64,000 nt of DNA from contig NC_057751.1 of NCBI RefSeq assembly GCF_004010195.1, forward strand, positions 8,028,137 through 8,092,136. Reading direction: 5' to 3'. A model generated the notes under the pieces. The model made no database searches and was not told the origin of the DNA. It worked only from the letters and a program-made list of their open reading frames with translations. This DNA comes from Chiloscyllium plagiosum (Eukaryota). Positions within the stretch are counted from its first letter, which is position 1; each line of letters starts with the position of its first letter. The position numbers and the translations under genes were made by a program. Below, one piece after another: positions 19,750-53,339 of this stretch.

Positions 19750-19809
19750 TTATGATCATTGTCAACAATTCTCCCTGTGAAATCATGGAGCATTGCAACA
19801 CGCATGCCC
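19750..19809 (-). CDS. Candidate exon (GMRVAMLHDFTGRIVDNDH-K), phase 2 to 2
   Basis: Strong acceptor cccctgttcatctccag|, moderate donor TAA|gtattt; phase fits the exon at 24964. Confidence 0.45.
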
Positions 19810-30658: not shown

Positions 30659-30705
30659 CCCAGTGAACAGTACGAGTCAACTTTACACAAGCAATTGCCA
30701 ATTGG
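30659..30705 (-). CDS. Coding exon k (QLAIACVKLTRTVHW), phase 2 to 1
   Basis: Acceptor tgttcttttacag|, donor GGG|gtacgt (alternative phase-0 donor TTG|gtatct 8 nt further on); in frame with j. Confidence 0.72.
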
Positions 30706-33700
30706 CTGTAAAAGAACATTGGCCTCTTTGCCATAACTATCAGTTGACAAAATCATCTGAATAGTTTCTGCTTGATCACTTCCAGTAATCAATAAAGTTG
30801 GGACAAAAAGGAAACCCTGCAGCAATTGTCTCTAATGTTTACTCAAGGGAGGACAGGACTTCATTCAACGCAAAGGCTGCTTCATTCATGAGTGATTATT
30901 CTAACATGAACTACCCTCCTCAAACCTCTGTTGTTCCTGCTCACCACTCTGAAATAGATTACACATCTCTCTATGTTTTAATCCAAATTTTAGTTGTCAG
31001 CAGCTGTCTCTTAAGCCATTAAGTCTTATTCCTCTGCACCCAAGGCGGGCTCTCATTTAAACTAGCTCCCAAAGTCTGTTGCAGAAAATGTACTCAACAG
31101 TGTAAAAACAGCAGGAGCTCCAATCCAAACTGACAGATCAAAATAAGAATCACTTAACCTCTTCATCCTGACCTTCCATGAAAATAACTCAAACAATGCT
31201 GGCAGCATTTCAATCGCCTACTCACCAGTTATTGATCCAAATCCCCTTTACAGTCTTCAATTATTCCTGATTCAACAATCTTCCTTGATGTTTGCTCTTC
31301 TTTTCCATTCTTCTTTGGACTGTGTCCATTTTCTTTCCTCTTAGTTTCTATCTGCACTGAAGGCTCATGCACTTATGGCCCACATCCCCTGGTTGAAAAC
31401 TCCCAAGTTGCTCTCACCTCATCTGATCCATCCCAGTTGACTAATCCCACAACATAAGTCTCTCCTCATTCTTCCTCTATCCAGTCAAGGGAAAAGGTTC
31501 CTCAGATCTTCCTCTGTCACTGAGCTCCTCGGATATGGAACCACTTTCACCTTTCACTCAGATCTCTTGCAATTTTGTTACTGTCTTCTTTGACCAGACA
31601 CCAGTGTCACTGGGAAGGTCGATTTCATTACTTTATCCATCATGGACAAGAGACCTATGGGATGGTAACTGGCCAGGTTGGATATGTCCTGCCTTTTGTG
31701 TAGAAGATGCATCTTCCACATTGTCAGGTGGATGTCGGTGCTGTGGCTTTGCTGGAAAAGCAAGGGATGCAGCGAGCTCTGAGGCCTAAGCTTTCAAGTC
31801 ACATTCCTAGATTTGGGTCACAGCCCATAGCCTGTGCAGGATCCAGTGTCTTTAACTGCTTCTTGATATCATGTGAAATGGCTGAAGACTGGCATCTGTG
31901 ATGCTGTGGACCTCAGGAGGAGGCAGAGATGGATATTGCACTCGCCAGTTCTGGCTGAAGATTGCTGCGAATGCTTCACCCTTAGCTTATGCACTCATGT
32001 ACTGGGCTCCCCTGTTATTGCAGATGGGATATTTGTGGAGCCCCCCACACCAACCCAGTAAATTGCTTAGTTGAGCACCACTATTCACACCTGGATATAG
32101 AAAGCTGCAGAGCTTAGACCTGATTCACTGGTTGTGAGATCACTTCAACTTTTCTATCACTTCCTGTTTGCACTTCAGGCAGCAGTAAAAAGCCTGGAGT
32201 CACAGGGGAATATGATGGCCTAGAGGTATATTTCACTGGACTGTTAATTCAGAGACTAAGTGAGGACTGCAGATGCTCGAGAGTCAGAGTCGAAAAGTGC
32301 AGTGCTGGAAAAGCACAGCAGGTCAGGCAGCATCCTGCTCCTCGAATGCTGCCTGACCTGCTGTGCTTTTCCAGCATCACACTCTTCGACTGCGAACCCA
32401 AGGAGCCAGGTTATGAACTGTGGCCCTGAGGTCAAACCCCATCATGGCAGATGGCAGAATTTGATTTCAATAAAAGTCTGGAATGAAGAGACTAATGATG
32501 ACCAAGAATCCATTGTTGATTGTCTAGTTCACTAAAGTCTTTTCAGGACAGAAACTGCCATCTTTACCCAGTCTGGCCTACATGTGACTCCATACCCATA
32601 TCAACATGGTTGACTCCTCACTGCCCTGTGGGCAACTAGGGATGGGTAACAAGTGCTGACACAGTCACCAATGCCCACAACCCATGCATGAAAAAAAAGT
32701 AGGCCAGACCACAAACAGAGAGCAGACTGCCCTCCTCAAAGGACACCATCGAACCAGATGGGCCTTCGCAGCAATCAGCGATGGTTTCATGGTCATTACT
32801 GAATCTTATTTATTCTCTACTGGGACATGGACATCGCTGGCTGGCCAGCATTTATTCTCCAAACCCAGGTGCTCTTGAACTGAGTAGCTTGCCAGGCCAT
32901 CTCAGAGGGCAGTTGACAGTAAAGCGTATGCTGTGGATCTGGAGACACAAGTCATCAAGAACAGATGAGGATGGTAGATTTCCTTCCACAAAGGACATCA
33001 GTGAACCAAATGTTTTTTTTCCCTGACAATTGGCAGCGGTTTCATGGTCATCATTAGATTCTTACTTGCAGGTTATTATTGGATTCAAATTCTACCATCT
33101 GCCACGGCAGGATTTGGATGCATGGCCCCAAACATTATCTGAGTCTCTGGATTGATATCTCACGACATTACCACTGGGTCACTGCCTATCCCTGGATTGC
33201 CAGTCCTGTGACATCATCACAATATCCACCAGCTGTGAAATTGCACACAGCAAGCTCCCACAAACAACAATGAGGTCACGAGCTTTTGAATGTTATTCAG
33301 CAATAACTATTGACCAGGACCAAAAACAGATAGCAATTCGCCACATCTTTGGATTTACATGTCATGGAATCTTTTTCACTCACACAAAATGACTTTAGTT
33401 TATCCTTCCATCCAAATGACGCACTTCCAAAGGAGCAGGACTCCCTTAGAACTCACTTGTGTGCAAGCTTAGAATTTTGGACACAATGCTATGGCGTGGG
33501 AGTTGATCCTGCAAACATGCAATTTGGAGACAAGAGCATTACCCAAGTGAGCCACTGAAAGCACGCAAATCTCTTTTGCAAACTGGCTAAATGAGGTTGA
33601 TAAACTTGAGTGAGAAGCCAAGTCTGCACTGGACTATTTTACTCAAAACCACAAATCCCAACACTGGGCCTATTCCCATATGATCATGCTCTGAAACAGC

Positions 33701-33853
33701 TGCGGCTCCACCCACTGATTGTTCCCCCTTCCATGCATTCAAGCCCACACTGATTATTGCTGTCCCGTTAATTAAATTCACCCCATAATCGCAAATACTG
33801 TGGAGGTATTGATTTAAAACAGTACAACACATTCCAGGTTACAAAGTACATAC

Positions 33854-33941
33854 GTGCAACCCACAAACCCAAAGACTAACAGGTAGGCAGAGTCACAACA
33901 TTGAATGCACAACACATGTAAGTGCTTCAAAGGTGAACTCT
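33854..33941 (-). CDS. Coding exon j (SSPLKHLHVLCIQCCDSAYLLVFGFVGC-T), phase 1 to 2
   Basis: Acceptor attatgcttctcag|, donor CAC|gtatgt; only one open frame. Confidence 0.78.
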
Positions 33942-35026
33942 CTGAGAAGCATAATTTTACACACAATAGGTTCTTTGTGGATTCTATACGTTCTCTGTTC
34001 CCTTGGGTATCGGCTGTCTCCACTGTACCCTTTGGGACCGGACTATCTGGCTGTAAAACTATTGTTGTGTCCCTGGCTTGTTTTGAACTTGGGCAAACCT
34101 CCCTCACTCTCACTGATTCTGTAACCTCTTTACATACACCGTGATACACATCATGATGAAATAAAGCTCTGAGGGAAGAAGGCTTTTCTCAAGTTTCGAT
34201 TACACGTTTCCTTTTCACTGCTCTGAGGACGGGGAGGGGCATTGTCATTCACACAACCCTCTGAGACACTTCAATTTCCCACTGGGCCACAGTGGCGAAG
34301 AGCCCAGTCTCATTAGAATGGAAGTCGACACAGTCTCCCCTTCCTTGAGGCAAGGAACGGGTCCCAGAGGCAGGGTCAAATTCTCCAGAGGAACGTAAGT
34401 CAATGTGTGAAGGATGAGAGGTGCACAGACAATTGAATGGCTGAAAATTTGTTTACTTTTGTCTTGAGCTGTACCGACACTTTTTCAGAGATTGTTTGAG
34501 ATATACTTTAAAATACCGCAGAGAGAATTTTCAGGAATGCACTCGGTGTTGCTGTACCTCGGGATTGGAAATGCTGTATTCACACACTTAGATTTGATCA
34601 AGAGTATTTCTGAGCTTTATCATGCAATATCAGTGGAAAAATGCTAAATGCTTATCATCAAGTTGCTTCGCAGTCCTGTGTCTGCTGTCAGGCCAAGTAT
34701 AAGAAATAGGCTGAGTCAAGAATTTAGCTATTTTTGGTGACGGCTGATTTAAGAAAGGACACAGTCCAGGATTGCGTGGGAATGACCCACTCTTCTTTCG
34801 CTGGCAACCTGGATACTTTGTTTTGTATTTTTATTCGTCCTCAGGACATCAGCATCATTGGCAAGGCCAGCACTTGTTTCCCAGTTAACAGCAATAGACC
34901 ATCCTGCAATGCCAGGTGCTGAGGGGGTGCCACCCTGCAACTGGGCAGAGGCACCAGGGGATTGCCCCCCGAGATTCAAAAGCACAGCAATCCTGAAGGG
35001 CAGCACCAGCAACACTGCCGCACCCA

Positions 35027-35347
35027 TAGAATCCCTAAAATGTGGAAACTGACTATTCGGCCCAACAAGTCCACAATGACCCTTCAAAGTGTAACCCAAC
35101 CAGACCCATTCCCCTTCCCTATTACTCTGCATTTACCCCTGACTAATGCACCTAACCTGCACATCCCTGAACACTATGGGCAATTTAGCCTGGCCAATTC
35201 ACCTAACCTGCACACCTTTGGACTGTGGGAGGTAACCCTCGCAGCCACGGGGAGAACGTGCAAACTCCACACAGAGAGTGGCCCGAGGCTGGAATCGAAC
35301 CCGGGTCCCTGGCGCTGTGAGGCAGCAGTGCTAACCACTGAGCCACT
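35027..35347 (-). mobile_element. HE1-type SINE
   Basis: Head, body and tail present. Confidence 0.92.
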
Positions 35348-37289
35348 GGAACCCAGCCAGAATACTCCACAGGAGTGACAAGTTCATTCACCGACTCCAC
35401 TGACGACTTGCTGACCCATCAGAAGTCTCCTTCAGCCATGTCTCTTCACACTCTGAGAACAACACAGGAGTCCACCATCAGCCAGTGAGCCCTACCTGGG
35501 AACCAAGTTTAGCCGTCTGCCAGTGGGGGCTACAGAGGAGGGGACCAACAAAGTCCTATATCTTTGATTCTTGTGGACTTGGGGTGGGGAGGGGCTGTGG
35601 GAAAACAAGTGGACACTTTGCCTTTCACGTCCATCACTTGAGAAGGAGGCACATGAACTGAGGGAGACAGAGTCAAAAACAGCTCAGCAAAGATGAGGCT
35701 GTTTCTGGAACATCTCAGGGCCATTGGGAACCAATCATTTGGTTTGCTGATCATTAAAAATATCCCAACTCTCCTCTCCACAAAGTATCAAGGCTTCCTT
35801 TCATTTCAAAGGTGAGGGTAAAAATAGAGTCTCCCACGCTTTCTTTTGCTGGTTATGCTAATACCTGAATAAATTACTTCGCCCTATGTTTGCCTGGCAG
35901 ACTGAGTAACTCATATGTCCTTCAAACCCAGTGTTCAATTTTGTGCTTTTAGATTATTCTTTTCTATTTTGGCTGCTGAATCTCATAAATCCAATGTGCT
36001 TAATTTTGGTTTACCTTAGAGGGGAGGTTGGGGAGGGGCTGAGCAGGAGTGGAAGGGGGAGAGGTGGGGAAAGAGAGCAATTTCATATCCCCTAAGTAAT
36101 GTACTGCCCTTTCAGACTCAGTCCCACCATCCAAAGGTTACAAGGAATCATTGAGAGATTAATGTGGGGTCTTATCTTAGTTCCCATTGACTGTTGCATC
36201 AGGGTCTCCCAGGAACATGGTGCATAGACAATGGACTTTGATCCAGTTGGAAGGCAGCAATTCTCAGGTCAGCCTCAATCTGCTGCAGTGCAAATGGCAT
36301 TGGGAACATCTCCTCCCACTCTAATGTCTGAAGGCCCTCAAACTTACCCAACATGTGGCTGGCGGTGGGTAATGATTATACTCCACCATGTCTCTGACCA
36401 ATTTCAGCAGCTCCCAGCCTCAGCAGGACTGGGAGCGACCAGATGGCCTCCTTTCTGGCACACCCCTCCCTCTCCCCCAAGAGTCAGGGGTCCCTTAACT
36501 GTCCTCAACTGGACAAGAGACCCAAGGGGACGGTCTTTTAATTCTCCTCCTGCACCACTGTTGGCCTCTGGTTCACAGGAATCACACTTAGAGATAGGCA
36601 ATCCATGTCATTCCCCACCCTGAACCTCTGACTCACCACCCAACCTCAGACTCCGGAGCTGGGATCAATAATTCAGCTGCACTGATCTCACTCTATATGG
36701 CATCAATCAGGAGTATGTTGGAATACTCTTCACTGACATTGCCTCACAACTGGAAGACGACTGAAAGGTTCGACCCACACCAACACTTTGGTTCCTGCTT
36801 CCAGAAACTGGTACCATGCACCAAACTCAGAGGCCCATATTACTGGGACCACTAGCCTCCACATGCCTGGATGAGTTCAGCTCCAGCCAGGTAAAGCTCG
36901 ACACCATTCAGGACAAAGCAACTCATTCATTTGGCACGGCGTCCACCACTTTTAATGTTCACTCCCTCCACCTCCTACACACAGTGGCAACAGTGTGCAC
37001 CATTGACAAAACACACAATAGCATTTTCCCTCGGGCTCTTTCGAATGCAACCCCTGACTCAGGAACGTCAACCCACCTTGAACGACAAGGGTTTCAGATA
37101 AATGGGAACACCACCATCTGCAAGATCCCTCTCCTAGCCACATGCCAGCCTGACTTGCAACAATATTGCCTTGCCTTAACTTTCTATGATTCAAAATCCT
37201 GGAACTCCAGAATTTATGCATTCCAAGAATGCAGTTCCCCATCACTTTCTCAAGGACAAATGCTGTGGTTGCTTCGGAAAATATCTCTA

Positions 37290-38300
37290 AACATAGTGGC
37301 TTTTGAAACAGTTCAGAGAAGGTTTATTCAACTTGTTTCCTGGACGAAGGGCTTATCCCTATGAGGAAAGGTTGAACAGATTTGATCCATATCCTTTGGA
37401 ATGTGCAAAAGGGAGAGATGATCTTATTGAAACGTGCAAGATCTTGAGGGGACTGGATATGGTGGAGACCAGGAAAAAACTTCCTCTTGGGGTGGAAACT
37501 GAACAAGGGGGCTGAGTTTAAGAATTCAAGTCAGGGATGACGAGAATAGGTTTTTTTTTGCCCCTGAGAGTTACTCCAGTACAAAACTCTCTTCCCCAGA
37601 AGGTAGAGAAGGCCGAGTTTCCACATATATACAAGGGCAAGTCAGACAGTTTTTGACTTGATGGAAAACTGGGTCAAGGATTATGGTGTGCACGCTGCAC
37701 AGTGCAGGTGACATAAAGACAGATCAGCCACAATCTTAGTGAATGATGGAGCAGTCCTGAAGGCCTGAATTATGAAGTTCTTCTCCAACATACAGAATTA
37801 GTGCGTGGGGAACAGATACTGCTTGAGCCATCAATACAGGGAACCTTTTTTTAGAAAGCTTGCAAGTGAACAGCAGTGGTTACAGAGCCATACAGCACAG
37901 AAACAGACCCTTCGGTCCATGCAGTCCATACTGACCATAATCCCAAACTAAACTAGTCCCAACGACCTGCGCTTGGTCCATTTCCTCCCAAACATTTCTT
38001 ATCCATGTACTTATCCAAATGTCTTTTAAACTTGGTAACTGTATCGGCATCCACCACTTCCTCTCTAAGTTCATTCCGCACACCAAACACCATGTCAAAA
38101 AAATGCCCCTCGTGTCTTGTTTAAAGCTTTCTCCTCTCACCTTAAAAATATGCCTGCTGGTGTTGAAATCTCCCATCCCTGCCATTCACTTTGCCTATAC
38201 CCCTCATGATTTTATACACCTTGATAAGGTCACACCTCAGCCACCTATGCTCCAGGGAAAATGTCCCAGCCTATCCAGCCTCTCCTTATAACCCAAACCC
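37290..38300. mobile_element. Two CR1 3' fragments, tail to tail (+ 37290-37780; - 37880-38300)
   Basis: CR1 C-terminal translations on both strands. Confidence 0.8.
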
Positions 38301-38606
38301 TCAGTTGTCTGACTCAATGGAGCTTCACAGCCAATTCTGTCATCCGCACATACAATTCTCACACTGGAGCCATGCTGCAGTCACCTATTCTACATGCAAT
38401 TTCTTCAATCCCAGGGACACTGTGGCCGTGATGCCTGCACACAGTCACTCCCAATGGGAGAGTTCTGCACTTTGCGTGTTCTTATGAAACTTGTCATTCT
38501 CTGTAAACCTCTAACCCTCCATAAATTACCACCTTAGCGACAGTGGAGCACACAGGTGGAGAACTTGATGAGGAACCAGAGTCTGAACAGAGCTTCGAAA
38601 TCTCAC

Positions 38607-38683
38607 CCAGAGAGAAGCCAGGGGAACAGATGGTCTGGGAGATGAAATAGGTTTTCAGCTCAGCATTAGGCTCAGGTTTGATC
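38607..38683 (-). CDS. Coding exon i (IKPEPNAELKTYFISQTICSPGFSL-E), phase 2 to 1
   Basis: Acceptor gacctttgtcctcag|, donor TGG|gtgaga; supplies the phase change needed between h and j. Confidence 0.75.
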
Positions 38684-38759
38684 CTGAGGACAAAGGTCAC
38701 TTAGCAAGACTGTGTAAATGTAGCTTAGATCAGCATTTCATCAGTTTCCACACTGATTT

Positions 38760-39285
38760 GGGAGTGTTTATAATGACAGTGCAAGGGAAACTTTACTTTC
38801 AGTTTGCAAGAGTAGATGGATCTTTACTCTGTATTCTAACCCCACGCTGTCTCTGTCCTGGCAGTTTGATGGGGACAGCGTAGAGAAAGCTTTACTCTGT
38901 ATCGAATGCTGCACCATCCTTGTCCTCAGACATTGGTGAGATAGTCTGGTGTGAGTTTCACTTTGTATTTAATCTATGCTGTATCTGCCCTGGGTGCATT
39001 TGACACCATATTATAGAGGGATAGATAGATAGACATAGATCTATCCTTGTGCTGTCCCTGTGCTGGGAGTGCTTGTTGGGTTTGAGAGAGAGTGTTTAAT
39101 GGGACAGCATGGAGGGGGAATTCACTCTGCATTCCATCATGCTTTGCCTGCTCTGAATCATTTGATCTGACAGGGTGAAGGGAGCTTCAGACTGTGTCTG
39201 ATCAGTGGTGTCCCAGATCTCAAGAAGTTTGATTGAACAGTGTAGAGGTAGCTTTTCTCTGTTCTCATCGGTGCTGTAGATAGTA
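38760..39285 (+). repeat. Degenerate minisatellite with units of about 65-70 bp
   Basis: Recurring gtttgat..gacag.gtagag..agctttactctgtat...gctgt...tgtcctgg. Confidence 0.75.
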
Positions 39286-40153
39286 TTTTTTAAATGTCTG
39301 GGTTCATAGAACTAATAAATAACTTAATTTGTAACGTGGCTTCAAGTTTGGCTCCCTTATTGTCCAATTAATGTTTGCAATAAATCACATGACAACACGT
39401 TCCCAATACATTCACAATGTGTATTCAGTCAGACTTTCCTTCTGAGATCAACCCCAGTTAGCTCAGTTGGTTGGATGACTGGTTTGCAAGACAGAGTGAT
39501 GCCTGGACTGGCTGGGGTGACCATGACATGCCTTTTGAACCTCATCTTCTGCCTAAGGAGTACTGTGACCCTCAGATTAAATCCACAACCAGTTCTCTCT
39601 CTCTCTCTTGAATGAGCAAAGAGCCCTATGAAAGGCCCCTCCTGTGTCACGGTGGTAGTGACCCTACCCCGGGAGGTCCGGGTTCTAGTCGCGCCCGCTC
39701 CAGAGCTGCGTCATCACATTTCTGAACAGGTTGATGAGAAAAATAACTTAAACGTGTTTTGAAACATCAGCCCCCATGCCAGGTAATGTTCTCAGATTTG
39801 TCTTTCAACCCTGGTTGAGGAGGCAGCTGTTGGCCCTGTATTGAACAAGCTGCTAGCTGGCCGAACCCAGGTTGAAACTCAGCTCTTTCCATTTCAGAGT
39901 GTGCTCCTCAGGCAGGGGCTCTGACGGCTCCAGCGTTTTGATGGAAGAGCTTGGCTTGTAGCCTGGACAGTGAATCTGGCTCTGCCTTCCTGACAGGTGG
40001 GGGACATCGCTGAAGTCAGCTTCCCCACACTTGTTCCCTGACTTTCAAAGCATCTGGAGGGAGCTAATTCCCCCACTTGTCCTCAGAATGTCGAGTGTCA
40101 TTCAAGGCTGCAAAATCCCTCACTGCAGTTTCCTCCTTCGGTCTTCCACATAC

Positions 40154-40261
40154 TTCCCAGGGCTCGCATAAGCTCCATCTTTCCCCTTGTAATCAAAAAC
40201 TCTTAAATTCAACTTGGCGTTCCTTTGATTCTCATCGCTTTCAGTGTTACCACTTTTCAAC
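40154..40261 (-). CDS. Coding exon h (LKSGNTESDENQRNAKLNLRVFDYKGKDGAYASPG-K), phase 2 to 2
   Basis: Acceptor gcctgttcccaaatag|, donor GAA|gtatgt; completes the TG|G Trp codon from exon g. Confidence 0.78.
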
Positions 40262-40327
40262 CTATTTGGGAACAGGCCAGTCAGCCTCCTCAGGCCTGTT
40301 CTGTCATTCAATATGATCTGTATTAAG

Positions 40328-40724
40328 TGGGCAGTACGGTGGTTTAGTGGTTAGCACTGTTGCCTCACAGTGCCAGGGATGTGCTCCAATTCCACCCTCA
40401 AGTGACTGCCTGTGTGAAGCTTTCACATTTTCCCCGTGTCTGGGTGGGTTCCCTCCCAGGTGCTGCAGTTTTCTCCCACAGTCCAAAGCTGTGCAGGTTA
40501 GGATGGACCGGCCATGCTAAATTGTCCCATGGTGCCTAGGGATGTGCAGATTAGGTAGATTGGCTGTGGGAAATTGTCCCATGGCATCTAGGGATTGGCT
40601 ACAGGAAATGCAGGGTTGTGGGGTTGGGAGGTGGGTGGTGGGTCTGGGTGGGATGCTCTTTTGATTTTTGCCTTCTCGGTGTAGACCCGATGGGTCGAAT
40701 GGCCTGCTTCCACTGATTCTGTGA
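40328..40724 (+). mobile_element. HE1-type SINE
   Basis: Head, body with internal tandem units, and tail. Confidence 0.9.
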
Positions 40725-41587
40725 AATCCTTGCACTTGAGTGTGCACTCCTTCACCCCCCCCACCCCACCAGTCAGACTTCCTCTCTCTCCCTCTCTGAC
40801 AAACAAAAAAAAAATCCATCATATGGCTGTCAAAGTGAACAGCTTATCGAGCATCAATTGTCATTTGCCAACCTGACAGCCTCAAACCCCTCTCAGACTT
40901 TGTGCAAATAAGTGTTTCTTAATTTCACTCCTGAAAGGCACAGCCGTTCCCAGACAACTGTGAGAAAGAATCAATTTGAAGCCATCGCAGTGAGGTTCAA
41001 TTCAGCAGAGTGGAGATGGAGTGGTGATCTCTCTAGCCCTGTTCAATTCGACCTTGAGTCCACTGCCCACGTCCTTGAACACAGATAGTCAATTGCTTTC
41101 TCACTCCAGATGCTGTTAACTGTAACATGTACCTTGCCGGAGCAAGTCAAAAAAAAATCAAAAGCTAAAAATCAATAGCCCTTCAAAATAAAGTGCATTA
41201 AAGGCACGTCAACATAGCAAACAATTCAAAGCCAGGTCACCCACAGGCCCCTCACTCCTCCTTTGTGGATTAATAAGCAAACAAAGACAGAAGATATGGC
41301 TGGACCTTTTCCAAGCCAGGGCACTGACATCGATTTTAAGCAATGAAATAGCCATTAGGATGTGAGGCAAGAGATAACAAGAGTTATTTCCGGTCACCAT
41401 GCTTTGAACTTCGCTGCTCGCCTGTCCATTTCAGGGATGACCAGGAAATGGCTCAATAGGTCAGCTCTTCCGTCAAGGCAAACCGAACTGTCAACTCAGA
41501 ACAGACGGGGGCAGGATGCACAAAAAACGTAAGGCAGCTTGCACTCTGACTTGTCAGAAACCACTTGCTCTTTTAATGCATCTTTAC

Positions 41588-41687
41588 CACGCCTCGAGTG
41601 TTTTGCTGAGATAAGTGCCTTCAAACTGCAATGCCGAGAGGGGATTAGCTTCTTTGGATGAACTGTCACCGTCGATCCACAGAACCT
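41588..41687 (-). CDS. Coding exon g (VLWIDGDSSSKEANPLSALQFEGTYLSKTLEA-W), phase 1 to 2
   Basis: Acceptor ctttttcttctggcaatcag|, donor GTG|gtaaag; an in-frame stop follows immediately in the intron. Confidence 0.78.
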
Positions 41688-42459: not shown

Positions 42460-42830
42460 CCAAGACGCACTGCGGGAATTCACCAAAGATCCTCAGACAG
42501 CATCTTCCAAACCCAAGACCACTTCCATCTAGAAGGACAAGGGCAGAACACCACCACCCTTAAGTTCCCCTCCATGCCACTCACTATCCTGACTTGCAAA
42601 TATATCACTGTTCTTCCACCATTGCTGTTCAAAATCCAGGAAGTCTCTCCATAATTCGGTGAATTCCCGCAGTGCGTCTTGGAGATTGTCCAACAGTGTG
42701 TACTATCAACCCACAGCAGGTGGACTGCAGCGGTTCAAGAAGGCAGCTCATCACAAGCTTCTCAAGGGCAATTCGGGTTGGTCAATAAATGCTGGCCCAG
42801 CCAGCGTTGCTCACATGCCACAAAATAATC
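42460..42830 (+). mobile_element. LINE 3' fragment (L2/CR1 group) sharing its tail with the second SINE family; related pieces at 17410-17880, 36700-37260 and 15860-15950 / 17285-17395
   Basis: Shared tail aagggcaa...caataaatgctggcccagccag; 36816 ORF has a LINE-like KLDTIQDKA segment. Confidence 0.65.
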
Positions 42831-43459
42831 AAAAAAAACCCTTCAGATCACCCTGGAACATTGCCAGGGCAAAATGAAGGCTTAACATTTCCTGGGGCAT
42901 CTTTGATGCACACATACTGATCATAACGGTTGATCTCCATTCTGGACCCTCTCAGAGTCCACTCACTTTTCCCCGCTTGAGCCAATGAAGCAACCAAAAG
43001 CAATAAATTCTAGCTCATGCCTTGCCCTCACCCAAGAGTCCTCGACTGCAGTTCCTTTCCACAATTACCCTTCACTGAGAACGATGAACCTGCGCTGGTC
43101 AGCGAAGAGTGGACTACAGCTGAGCTGATACTGAATGGACGGCCGACGCTCACTGCAGAAATTCACTGTAAGGCTGGATATTCAGGGTTGAAACTTTATT
43201 GCTGGAACAGCACAGCAGGTCAGGCAGCATCCCACTGTAAGGCTGGATATTCAGGGGACATGAACCAGAGATCCCACCTCCAAAAAAGCTTCAAGGAGAA
43301 GTCAAATTAAGATAAATGCCCATTTAAAATACAGGGCAAGGTGTGATCCTTAGTACCGATGTGGAATTCTCTGCCACAGAAAGCAGTTGGGGCCCTTTCT
43401 CTTTTCACTTGCCACCACTATAAGAGTTTAAAAACTTGAGGAAGGCACTGCTTTCAACA

Positions 43460-43970
43460 AGACCATACGACACAGGAGCAGAAATTAGACCATTCAGCCC
43501 ATCGAGTCTGCTCCACCACTCAATCATGGCTGATGGGTTTTTCAACCCCATTTTTCTGTTTTCTCCCCATAACCCTTGACCCCCTTTACAATCAAGGACT
43601 TATCTATCTCTGTTTTTAAATATACTCAATAGCCTGGTCTCCACAGCCTTCTGTGACAATGAATTTCACAGATTCACCACTCTCTAGGTGAAGAGTTTCT
43701 CCTCGTCTCCGCTCTGGAGGGTCTTTCCTTCACTCTAAGGTCCCTGACTCTCCTGCCAATGGAATCACCTTCCCAACATCCACTCTGTCCAGGCCATTCA
43801 GTATTCTGTATGTTTCAATTATGTCCCTCCTCATCCTTCTAAACTCCACTCAGTGTAAACCCAGAGTCCTCAATGTTCCTCGTATATTAATCCTTCCGTT
43901 CCTGGGATCCTTCTTGTGAATCTCCTCTGGACCTGCTCCAGGGCCAGTACATCCTTCCTGAGATATAGGG
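43460..43970 (-). mobile_element. CR1 3' fragment (same subfamily tail as 20428)
   Basis: YLRKDVLALEQVQRRFTR; tail matches 20430-20700. Confidence 0.9.
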
Positions 43971-44565
43971 CCCATAAGGGATCAAAGGACACAGGGAGAA
44001 AGCACAAACAGGGGACTGGGTTGAATGATCGACCATGATCATATTGACTGGCGGAACAGACCCGTCGGGCCGAATGATCAACACCTGCCCTTCTTTTCGA
44101 TGTTTCCAATGCCGGGGTATTTGACATGCTTTTGAGACCAGCACTATTCCTGCAAACCCCAGACCACAACAAAACGTGGTCTGCAATCATTTGTACATCG
44201 GCAGACCGAAGGGCGAGATGAGCAGTCAGAACTAACATCCACTATGTCGGGCGCAGTAAAATCTAATACAACGCAAAAACCGATACCTTTGCCTTACGAA
44301 TGAATTATATTTTATTCACAGAGGCATAGGCTTGCCTGTGCTACAAAAAAAAAACCCACTGCAATAAAGTAGATTGACTTGCCTGACCTGAAGCTCTGGC
44401 AATAAAGTAGGGATTAAACATGATTCTGTATGTCATGCAAGCTTAATACATGTCAAATCAGAAAGTAGCAATTGAACCTTTAGTAGGATAACTACACAAG
44501 GTAATGAACTGGCACTGTGCCACAGACACAGAAGAACACGAGAAATCAAGTTTTCAGGATCTTAC

Positions 44566-44615
44566 CAATCAAACCTTGATTCCCATGGCATTCTTCGTTC
44601 CACATTTCAGAATTC
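44566..44615 (-). CDS. Coding exon f (NSEMWNEECHGNQGLI-E), phase 2 to 1
   Basis: Very strong acceptor ttttctctctctccccattag|, donor TTG|gtaaga; only one open frame. Confidence 0.8.
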
Positions 44616-45399
44616 CTAATGGGGAGAGAGAGAAAAAAAATCAGTGGAATTGTCAAAAAAAAAAGTCTCAGACAATTTGTGCTGGGAGATGCGAGAAAAA
44701 GCACAGAAAATGATTTCAAAAATGTGCAGGGTAAAAGGCAAGGGGAGATAGCAAGACAGTGTTTCGGAGATCAGACTTGAACACCCCAATTCAGGAGGTT
44801 TTTATGATACCAGAGAAGCAAGGCGCGCTTGTTGGGTTAAACTGACTGTCAGTTTGAGGTTACCATGAACTTCTTGACCTCTCCTCTCGCCTGGGGCGTG
44901 GTGAACCTCAGGTTAAACTCTCCACCAGTTCTCTCTATATAATGAGAGCACAGCCTGTGGTCCTCTGGGACTATGGTAACATGACCCTTTACCCTGTACG
45001 TGCTGCATCCATTCAGAGAATGCTCCAAGCACATTATAATCACTCCCTGAAGGCCATGCACTTGCTGCTAATAACTAGGAACGTCTGCTTCTTCCTGCGC
45101 CTAATTTTAGTCAGGTGGGGGCAGTCAACTAGATTCGAATCTGCCCTGCACATTAAGATTTATCATGCCTCGCTTGTGTATTTTATTTTATGATTTTATC
45201 CTGATTCACACACGTCTGTTACAAAACAAGGTAAATTAATGTCACGCCAACCTCTTGTGTTTGTTATTATTGCAGCCAGCAGAGGATCAAAGAGGCTTTG
45301 TGTGTTAGAGTTGTGTTCAGTGCCACTGGAAGGAGTTGCAAATTTAGCTTGGAATCTGTAACATCCACCTCAGAGAGTAGTGTCACAAGTTTAATGTCT

Positions 45400-46130
45400 C
45401 TACTTCTTCAGTACGCAAAGGAAATTCAGCACGTCACAAGGACTCTGAGCAATTTTTATAGATACACCATAGAAAGCATCTTGCCTGGATGAATCACAGC
45501 TTCGTATGGCAACTGATCTTTCCACAACTGCAAGAAACTACAGAGTCATGAACACAGCCCAGTCCATCACGCAAACTAGCCATCCATCTATTGACTCCAT
45601 CTATACTTGCCACTGCCTTGGGAAAGTAACCAACATAATCAAAGATCTTTCCCAGGTTGCTTCCAGAAAATATGAAAGTTTATACACATTTACTTCTTAC
45701 CCACTGTTATTAGACATCCGAATGCACTCTCAAATTTTACATTTAATGTTGATCTCCATCTCTGTGCATCTTCTCTGCAGCCATAACATTGTATTCCTCA
45801 CTCTGTTCTATTACCCAAATGCATTTGGTATAGAGATCGTTCTGCTTTTACATGTGATGTGTTAACACAAATTCACTGTAACGCAACTGACGAGTTGAGA
45901 CATTTTATAAATGGCGAACTTTTAAAACGTGTGCTGGCTGTAACTCAATTAAATCAGCAACACTTTCAGCGCTGTTTCTAAAGAGGGACTTTTCTTTAAT
46001 GCGAGTTTCACAAGAATGCAGCCATCGCGTTACAGAAGAACTACCTGTAGCACGATCTGTCTGTACTGTACACAAAACAAGACTTTTCACTGGACCTAGC
46101 TACATATGACAACAATAAATCAATTCAAAT
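45400..46130 (+). mobile_element. Rex1/Babar-like LINE 3' fragment interrupted by a MITE
   Basis: RTLSNFYRYTIESILPG; tail matches 29990-30060. Confidence 0.7.
45828..46050. mobile_element. TcMar/Tigger (MER6-like) MITE; related copy at about 6405-6636
   Basis: CpG-rich insert interrupting a Rex1-like fragment, TA-flanked, with imperfect inverted ends including ctgtaacgc/gcgttacag. Confidence 0.5.
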
Positions 46131-46919
46131 CCAAAGAAAAGAGAGCACAGCCAACAGTGCAGCAGCTCCACTGTCTTGCCAGGAGTTGAATTCACTGCCC
46201 AGCTCTCAGTGACCTGGAGAAGGAATATTCTCAATGCAAGTCGCTCGGTAATTTCAGAGAGCAGTTGAGAGTTGACCACGTGGTTGAAAGTGTGGAGTCA
46301 GGCACAGGCCAGGGAGGCTCGGCTTCTGTCTCTGCTTCGTGAGTCAGCCAGGTTTTTAATGACCTATTTGGTTGGTCAATGGCTACCATTGCTGCCACTA
46401 ACTTGGCATTCCACGGTGATCGACTCCACTGATGCCAGGTGCTTTTCATCCATTCATGGGGCAAGGGGAGCTGCAGAGGACAGATGGGAACCTCCCACAT
46501 CAAAGAATTGGCCTGGTGACGATTGCTACCACCGGCTTAAAATTACAAGTCAACTCAAGCTTCACAATGAGACCATCATTACGTTGAGTAGAATGCTCTT
46601 CAGCAACCTTCCTGACTTCAAGAATTCGCGCCAAGGGGACATGGTGTTGCGCGTTAATGCTATACAAAGGCTCAGGCTGTGGAAATTAGTTCAAATCCCA
46701 TCAGGGCAGCCACTGGAATTTACACGATAATGCTAAAACTTGGAATATAACATGAATAATAACATAAAGTGTAGCAATGGTCATCGATTGCTGGCAAAAC
46801 CCACAGAGTTCATTCACGTCCTTTGGTGAAGGAAACCCATCATCCTTTCCCGGTCTGGCCTACATGCCCACGAGAAACTCTCAAAAGTGGTGCAGGAGAC
46901 ACACTGGTCAACATCACAC

Positions 46920-47250
46920 AGTCATACGGTATAGAAGAGGCACTTTAGCCAATCAAGTCTGTGCCACCAAAAATGGTCCACTACCTACACGTGTTTATTT
47001 CCCGCATTGGGTCCATAGCCTTCAATGTTATACCACCATGAGTGCTCACCCAAGTCCTCCTTAAAGGCTGAGAGATTTCCCACACCAACCACCCTCCCAG
47101 AGACTGCATTCCAGACCCCCAAACCTTCTGCATGAAATAGTCTTTCCTCAAATCCCCTTGGAAACTCTCGCCTGTCACTCGAAAATTATGCCTCCTTGTT
47201 ACTGACCCTTCAATGAAGGGGAACAGCTGTTTCCTCGTCCCTCTGTCCAA
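46920..47250 (-). mobile_element. CR1 3' fragment
   Basis: ORF 46981..47301 is CR1-like. Confidence 0.75.
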
Positions 47251-47666
47251 GTCCCTCATAATAACCCTCCCAGCCTTTGCCTCTCCAGAGAAAGCAGACA
47301 TCTTCTTGACCCCACCAGGGAGCTGCAGGGTTCACCTCCATGTGTTGCATTCCAATTTTTTTTTTAAACTGGTTTTTCTGTGTGAGAAAACTCCAGATCC
47401 ACAGCAGCGTGGTTAATGAGCCCCGGGCCAGATGCTCAGTTCAAGGGTAACTCAGGACAAGAAACAAATGCTGACCTTGCCTGCGGGGGTCCACACCACA
47501 TCAGAGAATGAGGAGTCAAAGCTGAACCTGCTCAGAATCATAACCCAAACTGATGCAGTGACCTGACTCAGTCAGTCCCACCTCCACCTCTCAATTGGAG
47601 CTTGGCCAATCGAGTAAGCCCGCTCTCATCAAACAGATGAAGTACAAAATTTGCCGTGATGCGTAC

Positions 47667-47770
47667 GCAAGACTGTTCAAGCAGCTACACAAATGCAAGT
47701 TCTTCAAACTTCCGTCGGTGTAAAAACAAAATGCTCCCAGATTCAACTCATTCAGAATGTCAACGCTATT
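47667..47770 (-). CDS. Coding exon e (NSVDILNELNLGAFCFYTDGSLKNLHLCSCLNSL-A), phase 0 to 2; acceptor position uncertain
   Basis: Acceptor gctttcacggctcag|, donor TGC|gtacgc; lies inside ORF 47591..47836(-); phase fits d and f. Confidence 0.6.
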
Positions 47771-48016
47771 CTGAGCCGTGAAAGCATCTCTCCAATCACC
47801 TTGACACCATCTCTTTCTCCAAGGAAATGAGCCCAACTGCTGAAACCTTCCTCAGAACAGAATTCCGGGTGTCCGGAATCATTTCTTACACAGTTTACTG
47901 TTCAGCCTGAAGGGCAATGATTGCCTTCCTAAAGGTGAGTTGGGCAGAGACTGTACAAGGTTGAACTTGGTGAATAACCTTCAGTCCTACCCCTTTCATT
48001 GGCCCTGTCACCCTCT

Positions 48017-48345
48017 GTACAGAGGGTTAGATAGGGTGGACAGGGAGAGCCTTTTTCCAAGTATGGGGACGGAAAACACAAGGGGACACAGCTTTAAAGT
48101 GAGGGGAGATAGGTATAAAATAGATGTCAGAGGTAGTTTCTTTACTCAGAGAGTAGTAAGGGTGTGGAATGCTTTGCCTGCAACGGTAGTTGATTCGCCA
48201 AGTTTAAGTGCATTTAAGTCGTCATTGGACAGGCATATGGATGTACATGGAATAGTGTAGGTGGGATGGGCTTCAGATTAGTATGACAGGGCGGCACTAC
48301 ATCGAGGGCCGAAGGGCCTGTACTGCACTATAATGTTCTATGTAC
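48017..48345 (+). mobile_element. Young CR1/HER1 3' fragment
   Basis: Open frame RGLDRVDRESLFP...FFTQRVVRVWNALP up to the stop; tail gggccgaagggcctgt is shared with HE1. Confidence 0.92.
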
Positions 48346-49254
48346 TTTGCATGCTCTCGGAGAGACTTGCAGCTTTGGCAAGGTAAAGCAATGAAAGGTA
48401 CTTGTGACATCAGCAATGAGATACTGTGGCTTGAAGTTTTAACTAAGGCGACAATTTTTATGTTAATTCACTCACGTGATGCTGGTGTTGCTGGCTGCAC
48501 ATCTGGAATATGACTCTTTTTTTTCAAACATGTTGTCCAATAGACACTGGTGCACTGCTCTTGTTGAATCAGAAAGTCTTTGTTGGACTGTTAAATAACC
48601 CAGTGTGATAAATCTGACATGACTACAGTTGCTGATTTCAGAATGTGCACTGCTTGACCACCTATGGTGACACCCATTTCAGGATTGCTGGGATTTTCTT
48701 TGTCAAAACTGTTTCTGCACTGTCCGATCTTAATATACTGGATGCAAATACATCTCCCTGCTTGCCTCCCCTCCCCTGGATTCCACAGCAAGGAGACTAA
48801 GAAAGACACACAATGTGAGAGGCAACAGCTGAGTAGTATAATTGCTCGACTGTTAATCCAGAGACCCAGGGAGGTTCTGGGAACATGGGTTCAAATCCTG
48901 CCACAGCAGGTGGTGGAATTTGATTTCAACAAATATCTGGAATTAAGATTCTCATGACCATGAACCCATTGTCAGTTGTTGGAAAAAAAACCCCCTCAGG
49001 TTCACTGATATCCTTTAGGGAGGGGAAACTGCCACCCTTACCGCGTCTGGAATGCAGGTGTTTCCTGAACCACGGCAACGTGATTGACCCTTTATTGCTC
49101 TCTGGGCAATTAGGGATGGGCAATACATGCTGGGCGAGCCAGTGATGCCAACATCCCATGAATGAATGATTTTAAAAAACACAAGTGGTATCCTGGGTGT
49201 TGCTTATTCTTTCATCCCTTTCAGATATAGCAGGTACAGGGAGATGGCACCTGA

Positions 49255-49715
49255 ATGCAGCACAGCGCATTGAGTATGGGAGTTGGGAGGTCATGTTGCA
49301 GCTGTGCAGGTCCTTGGTCAGGCCAATCTTGGAAGGCTGGATTCAATTCTGGTCTCCCTGACATAGGAAAGATGTTGTTAAACTTGAATGGATTCAGAAT
49401 AGATGTACAAGGATGTTGCCAGAACCAGAGGGCATAGGATTAAAGTGAGAGGAGAAAGATTGAAAAGGGACTTAAGGGGCAACATTTTCACACAGAGTGT
49501 GGTGCATGTATGAAGTGAGCTGCCAGAGGATGGTGGTGGAGGCTGGTACAATTACAACTTTTAAAAGGCATTTGGATGGGTATATGAATAGGAAGGGTTT
49601 TAGAGGGATATGGGCCAAGCGATGGCAAACGGGAGATTTATTTGGAGTATCTGGTCAGCAATGACAAGTTAGACTGAAGGGTCTATTTCCAAGCTGGACA
49701 TCTCTATGGCTCTTT
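49255..49715 (+). mobile_element. CR1 3' fragment with an internal deletion
   Basis: Similar to 28595-29050. Confidence 0.85.
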
Positions 49716-50014
49716 GAATAACTCTCTGAAGTGGAGCCCATTAAAGGGAACCAAATAAGGAAGGTTACAGCAACTACCTCAAAAGAAAAACGAGAGGAAG
49801 CAAAGACTTGAACTGACGGCAACCATCAGAACATCAGTGCACCCTGAAGAACTTTGCTGGTCACCATGGATTCAGCTGCTCAGGTCCTAAGTTCCTAAAT
49901 TTCCAAACCACTCCCAAAACACCATGATCCATCCTCAAGAGATTAACAATGTACATACCATAATTCTATAACTCAATCACAAGACACTACTTCTGGCGAC
50001 GCAGTGGACTGTAC

Positions 50015-50075
50015 CAACCTGGATTCAATCTCATGTTTCTCGAATGGGCCATAAAACAACAATGCTGTGACCACC
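50015..50075 (-). CDS. Coding exon d (VVTALLFYGPFEKHEIESRL), phase 2 to 0
   Basis: Acceptor tgtttgtatctgagtacggtag| (a competing AG lies 8 nt upstream), donor TTG|gtacag; in frame with c and e. Confidence 0.62.
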
Positions 50076-50970
50076 CTACCGTACTCAGATACAAACAGAG
50101 CTAACTGACAACTCAACACGCTGCCGAGTCTCACTCCCAGCTCCAGAAGAGGGTGAACCATTATTAAGCTGCATCATTTCTCTTGGTTCAAACCACAAAG
50201 AGTGAATAACCTTGGTGCACAGTGAGTAATGTTGCGTAGGTGCGAATGTGGCAGGTATTTCAAACCACAGCACAATGCAGCAATGAGCAGGGATGGATGG
50301 CTGGCTGGCTGACTGACTGACTGTGGGTGGCCATGGAGTCAGTCTGCAAAGATACGTGGGCTGGGTGATGGCAAGAACTTGAGTGAATCACACCACAAGG
50401 TATTTAGCAGCCACACAAGCAGCCTCCTAGTAGTGTGGTTTCACAGCTCACTCAGGACCTACTCTCGCAACATCATTGGACCCTCTCAGCAGTGCACCAG
50501 AGCATCACCAAGTTCAATTGCAATAAGGCCCTGTTCCACAATGCCAGCCGAATCAATGTTGTTGTTTCAGAGAACAGCAACAGGCAGCACACAGTTTGCT
50601 AATGGCAAGTCTTCGCTGAAAGGCAGGCCAGAAATTAGTCAGAATCTCCTGCAGAGCAAAGAACATGCAGATTAATACATTCCAAAATTTGGACACATTA
50701 TCAAGGGCAGCTGCAAAGTTCTAATGAACGCTCAAGTGCAATGAGTTGCCCTGACAACAGTCTCCAAGTGAATCTTTCTTTGTCTGAAAAAAATGCCAAT
50801 TTGAGAGGCTGTGGAGACATACCGTATAACCCCTTGCACAGCTTGCTGACTGTCATTTCCTGGGGATCGGGTTTGATGTGGACGAAAGAAACAATGCACA
50901 GCACCAAAACATTACCGTCGCACAAGCTTTTCCATCAGTGGTGAGAGAATTGCAGGTGGATAAACTTCAC

Positions 50971-51022
50971 CACACTCCGGCCTTGACCTTGCACCGGCTA
51001 TTTTTGTGCTGCCAAACAATGA
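50971..51022 (-). CDS. Coding exon c (I-IVWQHKNSRCKVKAGV-W), phase 1 to 2
   Basis: Strong acceptor cccttcccctcttgtacctag|, donor GTG|gtgaag; phase-compatible on both sides. Confidence 0.68.
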
Positions 51023-52415
51023 CTAGGTACAAGAGGGGAAGGGCAAGTGTTCTGGAAGTCAGAGATCCAAGAAGCAAACCCAGAACATGTATGAGATGTT
51101 CAGCAAGCCAGGCAACATGCCCAATTTGGAGAATACAGCAGAGGGGGGACGGCTTTTCGTCAGAACAGGGAAACGTTTGAGAAGTCTTAAATGAGCACAA
51201 AGGCAGGCAGAAAGTACAAGAAGAGAAAGGTGCGGATTAGGGTCCTATGGCAAAAGGGATGGTGGTGCAAGTCCAAAGGCAGGGCAATGATAGTACAAGT
51301 GGAGCACAGGAAGAGCTGTTCATGACACAGATGGGTCATTACAAACATATCTGCACTTGTTTAGTGTTGTGGTTTACTTGCATTAAGTGGTGAAGGATTA
51401 ACCAAGAACAAAAGTCTTCAGCAGAAGAGTCACATACTTGAGAAACACTGAATGGTTGATTCTATAATAAGATAACAGCTTAAACGACTCGTCAACAGTA
51501 ACATGACCTCAAAGACACTGTCACGTTCTTAGAGATAGTAACAAGGTGCATGCCACAGGCTGCAGAACTAATGAACAACAAACAAACAACTCTTGCAAAA
51601 GACAACTGTTTCAACACCATTGGGCAGAGCTGTTCCAAAGCTTCTCTTTTTATTTTCTTTATTCATTCATGGGGTGAGGGTATTGCTGGCTATGCAGCAT
51701 TTATTGCTCATTCCTAATTGCCCAGAGGGCAGTTAAGAGTCAACCACATTGCTGTGGGTCTGAAGTCACAAGTTGGCCAGACCAGATAAGGATGACAGAT
51801 TTTCTTCCCTGAAGGACATCAGTGAACCAGATCGGTTTTTCCAACAATTGGTAATGGATTCAAGGTCATCATTAGATTCTTAATTCCAGACATTTATTGA
51901 ATTCAAATTCCACCATCTGCCGTGGCATAATTTGAGTGCAAGAACCCAGGTCCCCAGAATGTTATCTGGGTCTCTGGATTAACAGGCCAGTAATGATACC
52001 ACTTGCCATCACCTCCGCACAATAACCTGACTTATGCAGCAGAGGGGAGATATTGATCTGAACTGGGTCAGCTCTGATCCAGAAGCTTAAAGGAGCAGAA
52101 GGCGTTCCACACAACAAATAAAGATGCCCAAAAGGTAAGTGGCATTGAAATATATCAATCAGAATTGTGCAGCACGCAATCACAGCCTTGGTCTCATCTT
52201 TACAGAGTCCATCTCATATCATCGCACTGTGGTTGGAAGGAAAAGCAAATTCATGTGGCATTGCATCACTTCCTCCGATGATGCAGAGTATCATGTCAGC
52301 ATGTCACAGTCACCCTTACACTCCATAATCCAGCTGAGGACCTCAATGTGGTTTCAACCAGAGTCTCTCTACTTGGGAATTTATTTGCACAGAAACCCCC
52401 TCGTGGTTGTCTTAC

Positions 52416-52449
52416 TTTTATGATCAAATGGCCGCCTTCTGCTGCTGTT
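52416..52449 (-). CDS. Coding exon b (NSSRRRPFDHK), phase 0 to 1
   Basis: Acceptor ttccattgttcag| with a cctcaat branch-like motif, donor AAA|gtaaga; 34 nt; links exons a and c in frame. Confidence 0.6.
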
Positions 52450-52933
52450 CTGAACAATGGAACTTGATTGAGGTGCCAAACGCTAACCCTTCATCGTGCC
52501 ACTCAGCAGACACCCATTATCATGAAATCTGTTCAACTGCTCATGTGGGGGGGCAAAGTTACCATCCAATGCAAACTGCAGAAGGTCAAAGGATACATTC
52601 TCTGAATAATCAGGAAACACGGGGCAAAACCTGAAGGTCATTCTCCATTGAGTCTGGTACCCAAATATAATGGGAGAGAACAGCTTCATGTCGAACCATT
52701 GATGCCAATACACTGAAGGTGAGCAAGGAATGCAATGCTCCCAGGCGGGTAGTCAACCAGGATGCTTGGAGCATTCCCAGTTGACAGGGAGAGCTCATTG
52801 ATCCTCAGTTAAAGATGCTTGAACATCCTGATCATGGGCTGCCTCTGCAGTATTCCACTCCATGTACACAGAAAGGAAACAATCTTTCTCTTTTCAACCT
52901 TGCTGATTTTGCTTCACATCCAAAGAGAATTAC

Positions 52934-53027
52934 CAAGGTCCTCTGCGAGAGATTTATTCTCCCAAAAACAGAGATGTTTACGATATAAATAGCACATTCA
53001 ACAATTATGCTGCATTTTGGAGTGTAT
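52934..53027 (-). CDS. Internal coding exon a of an unidentified multi-exon gene (x-YTPKCSIIVECAIYIVNISVFGRINLSQRTL), phase 2 to 0
   Basis: Acceptor ttttatgccacag|, donor TTG|gtaatt; only one of three frames is open; non-repeat sequence; phase matches exon b. Confidence 0.7.
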
Positions 53028-53339
53028 CTGTGGCATAAAATATGTGAGCTAGGCAAATAACAGGGAATCAGGATTAGAGTGCAAGGGAGGGTGGCATTTC
53101 GAGACCTTGTTCATGTTAATGACACCTGGAATAATTATGCAAAAGATGCAAATACTTAAGACTGTTCAAACACAGTGACTTGAGCTCAGGGATATTGTTA
53201 GTTCCTTAGAGATAGCAACTGGGTGCATGCTATTGTAGAACTGATAACAGCAAATGAAAAATAGCTCCTACAGAATGTTCCTTTCTCATTGATTGCATCT
53301 ACAGTTTGTTAACATTTGAAAACCAGAAAATGTGCTTTG

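Follow-up and report, generated by a model that had tools for sequence, protein, structure and literature searches.

The locus raises the question of whether eleven short open segments on the minus strand of the window, by which is meant the whole stretch of 64,000 nucleotides of Chiloscyllium plagiosum DNA that was analysed, are the exons of one hidden gene. Each segment is bounded by AG and GT, as a preliminary description had claimed for exons of 34-108 nt, and the dinucleotides were verified one by one. The phases are also compatible as described: the summed length is 815 nt, and the joined segments contain no stop in the 271 codons of one frame, while the remaining frames hold 23 and 18. 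Canonical splice dinucleotides and a single open frame are found equally in chains assembled by chance. The 11-segment chain was found to have neither a start nor a stop codon, nor a CpG island outside repeats. The most likely explanation, to which we give a probability of about one half, is that the 11-segment frame is a chain stitched from intergenic desert DNA upstream of LRRTM4, and not a single transcribed gene that had been hidden.

The chain sits in a gene desert of approximately 670 kb that extends from a REEP gene to LRRTM4. When 239 peptides from the desert and its margins were scanned, LRRTM4 alone was above the Pfam cut-off. Searches of the literature brought up no work on this locus. 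The LRRTM4 promoter is about 105 kb away, and the chain is oriented as a divergent transcript starting there would be. A fourth alpha-catenin (CTNNA4, the host gene of LRRTM4) is proposed to have been lost at the locus, and three nested pairs are described in which downstream alpha-catenin exons lie opposite an LRRTM-type gene, on its 5' side (PMC3933685). The chain shares position and strand with CTNNA4, opposite LRRTM4 on the 5' side. An alpha-catenin or vinculin origin was rejected: about 800 kb contained no exon likeness, with a best score of 24 bits, and PF01044 was without match on the chromosome in a stricter first look.

The segments differ in quality. Splice scores are given here as acceptor/donor pairs in bits, with weights that are approximate frequencies. 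Segment 1 (52934..53027, 94 nt) is a candidate exon with scores of 6.1/4.6 and has no repeat match within the 1.1 Mb of compared loci. The candidate exons 2 (52416..52449, 34 nt) and 3 (50971..51022, 52 nt) have scores of 3.3/7.4 and 7.1/4.4. Segment 4 (50015..50075, 61 nt) is a weak candidate (-0.4/1.1), of which the chosen acceptor ranks fifth and the chosen donor third in the open frame; the better donor is at 50019, and together with an acceptor at 47765 it forms an alternative pair of sites for segments 4 and 5 that keeps the frame. Segment 5 (47667..47770, 104 nt) is a candidate exon that contains two LxxLxL strands; its donor is weak (4.1/0.1). The strongest sites of the chain belong to segment 6 (44566..44615, 50 nt; 11.4/7.2). 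Segment 7 (41588..41687, 100 nt; 5.5/4.8) is a candidate exon with LxxLxL strands, and a protein search of the genome found no paralogue of it. Segments 8 (40154..40261, 108 nt; 4.7/5.5) and 9 (38607..38683, 77 nt; 9.1/6.9) are candidate exons, as is segment 11 (30659..30705, 47 nt; 7.6/7.0), at which neither a stop codon nor a 3' end was found. Segments 3, 4, 5 and 8 are single copy in the genome; the repeat status of 1, 2, 6, 7, 9 and 11 derives mainly from comparison with 1.1 Mb of loci.

Segment 10 (33854..33941, 88 nt; acceptor 1.6 bits) is not a unique exon but a copy of an old dispersed repeat of approximately 110 bp. It has matches of 75-84% identity at 20 further genomic sites, repeat matches cover 89% of its length, and four aligned copies differ from it by indels of 1-2 nt. 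The claim that all exons lie in non-repeat islands is therefore not confirmed. Once segment 10 is removed, segments 9 and 11 are phase-incompatible and the frame of the chain is broken. The evidence does not support the 11 exons as one unit in the form drawn, because the frame depends on an exon that is a repeat and chance yields comparable open chains. A repeat tail, presumably a CR1-type 3' end, lies upstream of segment 8 (40268..40317, minus strand). It matches several other loci (best E 4e-5) and provides the branch and pyrimidine region of segment 8, ending 7 nt before it at a permissive setting; with a stricter mask the nearest repeat is 53 nt away. One of five repeat-distance statistics gave P=0.004, with a measure that is without power, as the true Slo3-like exons were the same as random.

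All 52 of the phase-compatible 11-exon chains optimised in 22.6-kb desert windows beat the chain as drawn on splice and codon score (179±13, minimum 138, versus 135). The mean splice score of 10.4 bits per exon compares with 15.0 in Slo3-like exons on the same chromosome, and other minus-strand segments nearby carry stronger splice sites. The chosen donor is the best of its open frame in nine of the 11 segments and the chosen acceptor in six. A branch-point motif is present in 5 of 11 segments against a background of 23% (P=0.08); 10 of 20 true exons have one. An independent search for the best chain found segments 6, 8, 9 and 11 again. The third-position A fraction of 0.17 and the motif counts of the full chain were reached by none of the 52 optimised chains. 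Open segments bounded by AG and GT are so dense here that each 22.6-kb window tested yields a better-scoring open chain of 11 exons. The most protein-like segments would have been kept when the chain was drawn, and the phases bridged with weak sites (segments 4, 5 and 10). Such a choice would produce mild codon and hydrophobic-strand signals, and the selection by itself could generate the codon-like, strand and chain-recovery signals seen here. Under stitching no translation is expected, although one segment or another may be an exon of a cryptic or non-coding kind.

Those signals are measurable. Without segment 10 and compared with random open segments, the codon score has P=0.004, CpG P=0.009 and third-position A P=0.023, and codon-like composition overall is at P about 0.004-0.05 with a codon model trained on only about 6 kb. 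The joined peptide contains seven strict LxxLxL motifs, where shuffles give 1.96 (P=0.002) and where comparison with random open segments gives P=0.009; the pattern was picked post hoc after inspection of the peptide. Two of the seven come from the repeat-derived segment 10, and without it five remain against 1.6 (P=0.037, random open segments). The alternation of strands and helices that had suggested an alpha/beta fold is reflected in an excess of LxxLxL-type strands, with the reservation that two of these strands are repeat-derived. The putative strands are at residues about 21, 62, 86, 102, 131, 148, 184, 210 and 255. A 44-residue stretch around segment 5, folded without an alignment, gave two helices and was uninformative.

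The nearest known likeness is to cysteine-containing or F-box LRR proteins of the FBXL/AMN1 type. Compared with the consensus of that type, the chain likewise has LxxLxL-like strands, on average about 24 residues apart and some then with a Cys. The chain, as a candidate protein, differs in its irregular spacing of 16-36 residues, in having no Pfam LRR match and in that no F-box was seen. A regular LRR period of 20-30 residues with a profile match was not found in the chain; a profile of the LRRTM4 repeats gives the peptide 1.9 bits, less than at least 12 of 300 shuffles. Other families were rejected. An 18-residue motif in segment 9 shares 10 identities with a Slo1-like exon of the RCK1 domain (PF03493) of Slo1/Slo3 (KCNMA1/KCNU1). 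On the profile 3 of 300 shuffles outscored the segment, which reaches 1.5 bits; PF03493 is absent at the locus, a Slo3-like gene is located at 0.65-0.73 Mb on the same chromosome, and the exon sizes differ. The chain does not match the S1-S6, pore and RCK profile of Slo. A presumed likeness to ferlin and C2 proteins in a few short motifs and many small exons did not hold either: all ferlin matches (PF08151, PF16165) are elsewhere, the one on the same chromosome at 15.74-15.83 Mb, and with a C2 profile (PF00168) from 20 genomic domains the peptide scores -0.6 bits and ranks 47th of 301.

That the protein could not be placed in any family holds in every search run, the joined peptide having been compared with small home-made profiles alone. 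Segment 8 had no match among proteins of 77-2000 aa, where neither of 2 candidates reached E<=10, and an 11-row alignment with 8 of the 11 segments had none among proteins of 218-2000 aa (5208 candidates). In a sensitivity trial with the peptide altered at random by 20%, the 11-row profile detected it at E<=1e-6 in three of three attempts. The search with segment 5, the only one of the three that covered proteins >2000 aa, gave solely a spurious repeat match to an unrelated repeat-rich protein among 1.84 billion representatives. A control exon retrieved 187 proteins, with 16 chondrichthyan species represented among them, and one of these proteins mapped exactly onto the same chromosome; no homologous protein of the chain was found in related species within the lengths searched, with these 16 species covered by the control. 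Pfam gave nothing for six exon peptides, and for 10 open frames a single DUF4866 row at E=0.12 that overlaps intron sequence; no exon tested singly matched a Pfam LRR. NCBIfam gave nothing among 10 peptides, and six exons and the alignment had no match in PDB (best E 1.4). The best ESM Atlas scores were 0.83 for segment 8 and 0.78 for segment 5, both below 0.9 and leads only; the lead for segment 5 is an RNase H cluster (21% of members). A metagenome scan for segment 8 found none. A metagenome match of segment 7 was rejected as chance, a seed word and intron sequence aligned to a GC-rich bacterial-type ORF. A sigma-70 promoter scan is inapplicable to vertebrate DNA.

Against stitching stands the possible, on balance doubtful, reading that a real gene, tissue-restricted and evolving fast, has escaped annotation and contributes segments 1-9 and 11 as its internal exons. 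It would encode a degenerate LRR-like solenoid, with segment 10 in the place of a missed phase 1-to-2 exon. By analogy with cysteine-containing F-box/LRR substrate receptors, the beta-alpha solenoid might be a putative protein-binding scaffold. The LxxLxL excess, which is kept without segment 10, argues for such a gene, as do the codon, CpG and third-position A signals, the best local donors in nine segments, the single-copy state of 3, 4, 5 and 8 and the independent recovery of four segments. The irregular spacing, the low LRRTM4-repeat score and the lack of a Pfam LRR in any exon speak against it, together with the post hoc motif, the missing start and stop, the weak sites of segments 4 and 5, and the absence of a match, over the protein lengths that the searches covered, in the sets from 16 chondrichthyan species. 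A real gene may also be made up of a subset, most plausibly segments 5-9 and 11. It is unlikely that the locus contains a lineage-restricted new vertebrate gene family, a multi-exon gene for a degenerate LRR-like solenoid of no recognisable family, built around segments 1-9 and 11 and missing from the searched shark and ray proteomes. If the gene reading were true, a gene of at least 240 codons with no assignable family would have been missed when 16 cartilaginous fishes were annotated, and the locus is one where vertebrates are known to have lost a gene; it would merit specialist attention and would be no new kind of system.

The segments might instead be what is left of a gene with introns that was lost, a unitary pseudogene with its coding composition partly kept, its splice sites decaying and repeats inserting. 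This would reconcile the coding-like composition with the weak splice sites, the repeat tail next to an acceptor and the lack of a counterpart in protein sets. The locus is also where the fourth alpha-catenin is proposed to have been lost (PMC3933685). We nevertheless consider this quite unlikely: neither an alpha-catenin or vinculin likeness nor an intact parent or paralogue was found, and if the gene had died in every annotated shark, stops or frameshifts would be expected in ten exons, where none is needed. An open frame that is incidental to a spliced non-coding RNA leading away from LRRTM4, with segments 6, 8, 9 and 11 and nearby strong sites as its exons, is improbable. The orientation fits a divergent transcript of the LRRTM4 promoter, stronger minus-strand splice segments are present nearby, and repeats are common in non-coding exons, but the codon-position asymmetry would be unexpected and Rfam finds nothing within the window. 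If the chain is stitched, as we favour, it is a calibration case: each 22-kb shark intergenic window tested yields an open chain of 11 exons bounded by canonical splice sites, and such readings therefore require junction reads or conservation.

RNA and variation were compared over a part of the chain. The RNA comparison comprised three runs of unrecorded tissue, two poly(A) single-cell libraries and the contigs of a presumed RNA run. One single-cell library was read to about 2%; the other (about 6%) placed no reads and is hence no test. Over 49900-53200, depth was found on a SINE at about 51.6-52.0 kb alone and not on segments 1-4, at low power. One contig of another DNA run (depth 8.8) differs in segment 2 at 52434 and 52435, the sole difference seen in segments 1-4 in that run, and both changes are silent in the frame. 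The pair has little weight because silent changes are equally frequent whether the frame is used or not; such a pair looks rare, at 79 of 7308 possible double changes.

All 11 peptide pieces of the preliminary description were located on the minus strand of the window, from 53027 (segment 1) to 30659 (segment 11), and each segment is preceded by AG and followed by GT. Joined with a donor at 50015 they give 815 nt, or 271 codons with no stops in frame and with 23 and 18 stops in the other frames, so that the open reading described is exact as arithmetic. The evidence does not support the 11-exon gene in the form described, because better chains arise by chance in the surrounding desert and because segment 10 is a repeat. 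The preferred reading, at a probability of about one half, is that the chain is stitched from intergenic DNA. The weights given to this and the three rival readings are judgements that start from a fair prior for readings of this kind, which was lowered mainly because the chain is absent from 16 chondrichthyan protein sets.

With approximate splice weights, the mean acceptor-donor score of the 11 segments is 10.4 bits per pair, compared with 15.0 bits (means of 7.7 and 7.3) for true exons on the same chromosome (C42, NC_057751.1), mapped with the Slo3-like channel protein P0006. For the chance chains, the best phase-compatible 11-exon chain, with non-repeat exons of 34-110 nt, was built in each of 52 strand-windows of the surrounding desert, each 22.6 kb long. 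Their splice-plus-codon score is 179±13 with a minimum of 138 (n=52), against 135 for the described chain; since all 52 outscore it, the open chain is no evidence here. An optimised search in the chain's own region reached 189 and has four of the 11 segments (6, 8, 9 and 11) in common with it. Nearby, some other open segments on the minus strand surpass most of those in the chain in splice-site strength (window 19717-19809, 17159-17250, 8461-8501 and 63548-63594; 8261-8383 of the fetched stretch L012 and 4053-4193 of L003). The four long enough to scan have no Pfam match, and the three included in the profile A2 have no database matches among proteins of 218-2000 aa.

Segment 10 (33854..33941) is 89% masked and is found at 20 other genomic places on many chromosomes with 75-84% identity. 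Alignment with four copies gives an element of about 110 bp covering the segment, with indels of 1-2 nt between copies and window. It belongs to a dispersed family with at least 21 places and 75-84% identity between copies (window 33850-33960; fetched stretches L145, L146, L147 and L018:5253-5341). The frame depends on this repeat-derived segment because the phase is 1 at the end of segment 9 (38607..38683) and 2 at the start of segment 11 (30659..30705). Genome-wide DNA searches (3.56 Gb) show segments 3, 4, 5 and 8 in a single copy each; the placing of all exons in non-repeat islands fails for segment 10. Of the 7580 candidates for segments 7 and 9, 40 were scored, and all of these are SINE-region matches; segments 1, 2, 6 and 11 were checked only against the fetched loci. 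The 50 nt preceding segment 8 (40154..40261) match a repeat tail, presumably CR1, that stops 7 nt short of the exon and is absent under a stricter mask. LINE remnants, which we take to be esterase-like, endonuclease-like and reverse-transcriptase-like frames, lie at 55139-57683 (+), 21176-21808 (-) and 7739-7880 (-); the piece at 7.8 kb imitates an exon carrying an LxxLxL motif.

Several signals favour real exons. We consider an unannotated gene with one wrong exon rather unlikely, and non-coding exons are the least probable reading. The chosen donor is the best of its open frame in nine of the 11 segments and the chosen acceptor in six. All composition tests share the flaw that segments had been picked for a protein-like look; with this limit, CpG observed/expected is 0.49 in the chain vs 0.29 in non-repeat DNA (P=0.017), third-position A is 0.18 vs 0.26 (P=0.005) and the codon score of the full chain has P=0.04. 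Without segment 10 the values are P=0.004 (codon), 0.033 (synonymous), 0.023 (third-position A) and 0.009 (CpG). Segments 5-9 have composition P of 0.017-0.075, and segments 1-4 alone give no significant composition signal. The peptide has seven strict LxxLxL strands, two of them contributed by segment 10, vs 1.96 in shuffles (P=0.002); without segment 10 there are five vs 1.6 (P=0.037). The motif counts and third-position A value of the full chain are reached by none of the 52 chance chains and its CpG value by eight. A branch-point motif is found at five of 11 acceptors; true exons have it in 10 of 20 cases, and its background rate is 23%. Two adjacent bases of segment 2 differ in another DNA run, both silently, which is weak evidence.

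That the peptide is not placeable in a family agrees with the searches of the protein database, Pfam, NCBIfam, PDB and ESM Atlas, which gave nothing usable for the peptides of the chain's exons; Rfam had no match in the window. The protein searches cover proteins up to 2000 aa, those below 218 aa through segments 5 and 8. Segment 8 with flanks gave two candidates and no matches (77-2000 aa), and the sole match of segment 5 with flanks among 1.84 billion representatives is an unrelated repeat protein. The A2 profile, built from eight segments (2, 8 and 11 left out) and three other candidate exons, gave 5208 candidates and no matches (218-2000 aa). In local trials on the peptide with 20% of its residues changed at random, it detected all three of three cases at E<=1e-6; with 30% changed it again detected three of three, at E<=0.6. 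A control with one Slo3-like exon found 187 proteins from 190 candidates, the first 17 rows representing 16 shark and ray species; one protein maps letter for letter on C42, and the database therefore includes a gene set of Chiloscyllium plagiosum.

The control gene is a second BK-type channel gene (C42:652915-734912, +; fetched stretches L032-L045) and not the Slo1-like locus, which lies on C38. For most of the 16 shark and ray species found, NCBI labels it 'calcium-activated potassium channel subunit alpha-1-like'; it is likely the Slo3/KCNU1 orthologue. A Slo channel was rejected for the chain: one motif in segment 9 was picked after the fact, 3 of 300 shuffles score above its 1.5 bits with the profile, and the Slo3-like gene lies elsewhere on the chromosome (0.65-0.73 Mb). 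A C2 domain (-0.6 bits, rank 47 of 301) and a ferlin (every match elsewhere in the genome) were also rejected. One of six ferlin loci lies at C42:15.74-15.83 Mb (-) and by position is probably FER1L5. A typical LRR was likewise rejected, the peptide scoring 1.9 bits against a profile built from LRRTM4 repeats, which is the level of shuffles. Should there be such a protein, the best guess at its structure, from motif spacing only, would be a degenerate LRR-like beta-alpha solenoid that acts as a binding scaffold.

The neighbourhood (C42:7.39-8.19 Mb) contains a semaphorin-4-type gene (about 7.43-7.47 Mb, +) and a REEP gene (about 7.49-7.51 Mb, -; PF03134). The two stand tail to tail, and a CpG island lies at about 7.514 Mb. 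An LRRTM-type ORF at 8.187 Mb (L011:4680-6206, +), which by sequence and position we take to be LRRTM4, is directly preceded by 1.7 kb of N, in which its first exon and promoter are probably hidden. In the roughly 670 kb from REEP to LRRTM4 none of the scanned candidate exons passed the Pfam cut-off (105 + 134 peptides, the latter a selection); the sole pass among the first 105 is the LRRTM ORF. The chain is on the strand opposite to LRRTM4, about 105 kb away on its 5' side.

A pseudogene remnant is an improbable reading. In PMC3933685, LRRTM4 is proposed to have once been nested in a fourth alpha-catenin, since lost; the chain's position is consistent with that gene as described there, and its sequence is not. 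PF01044 has no match on C42 in a search with a stricter first look, and 25 catenin/vinculin exons gave nothing above 24 bits by tblastn over about 800 kb, so an alpha-catenin remnant was rejected for want of sequence likeness. LRRTM4 with REEP about 670 kb off and no catenin between fits the lost-CTNNA4 model of PMC3933685. With the same stricter first look, PF01044 matches in the genome lie only on C1, C14, C38 and C5 and on one small contig, and that search showed no third alpha-catenin locus of its own, which is not evidence of loss. Chicken LRRTM4 is placed on GGA22 in PMC4120735 and PMC7240924, in passages that leave its 5' neighbour unnamed. Just left of the window, L012:5000-5800, with no Pfam match among the peptides scanned, is GC-rich and non-repeat and has long open frames.
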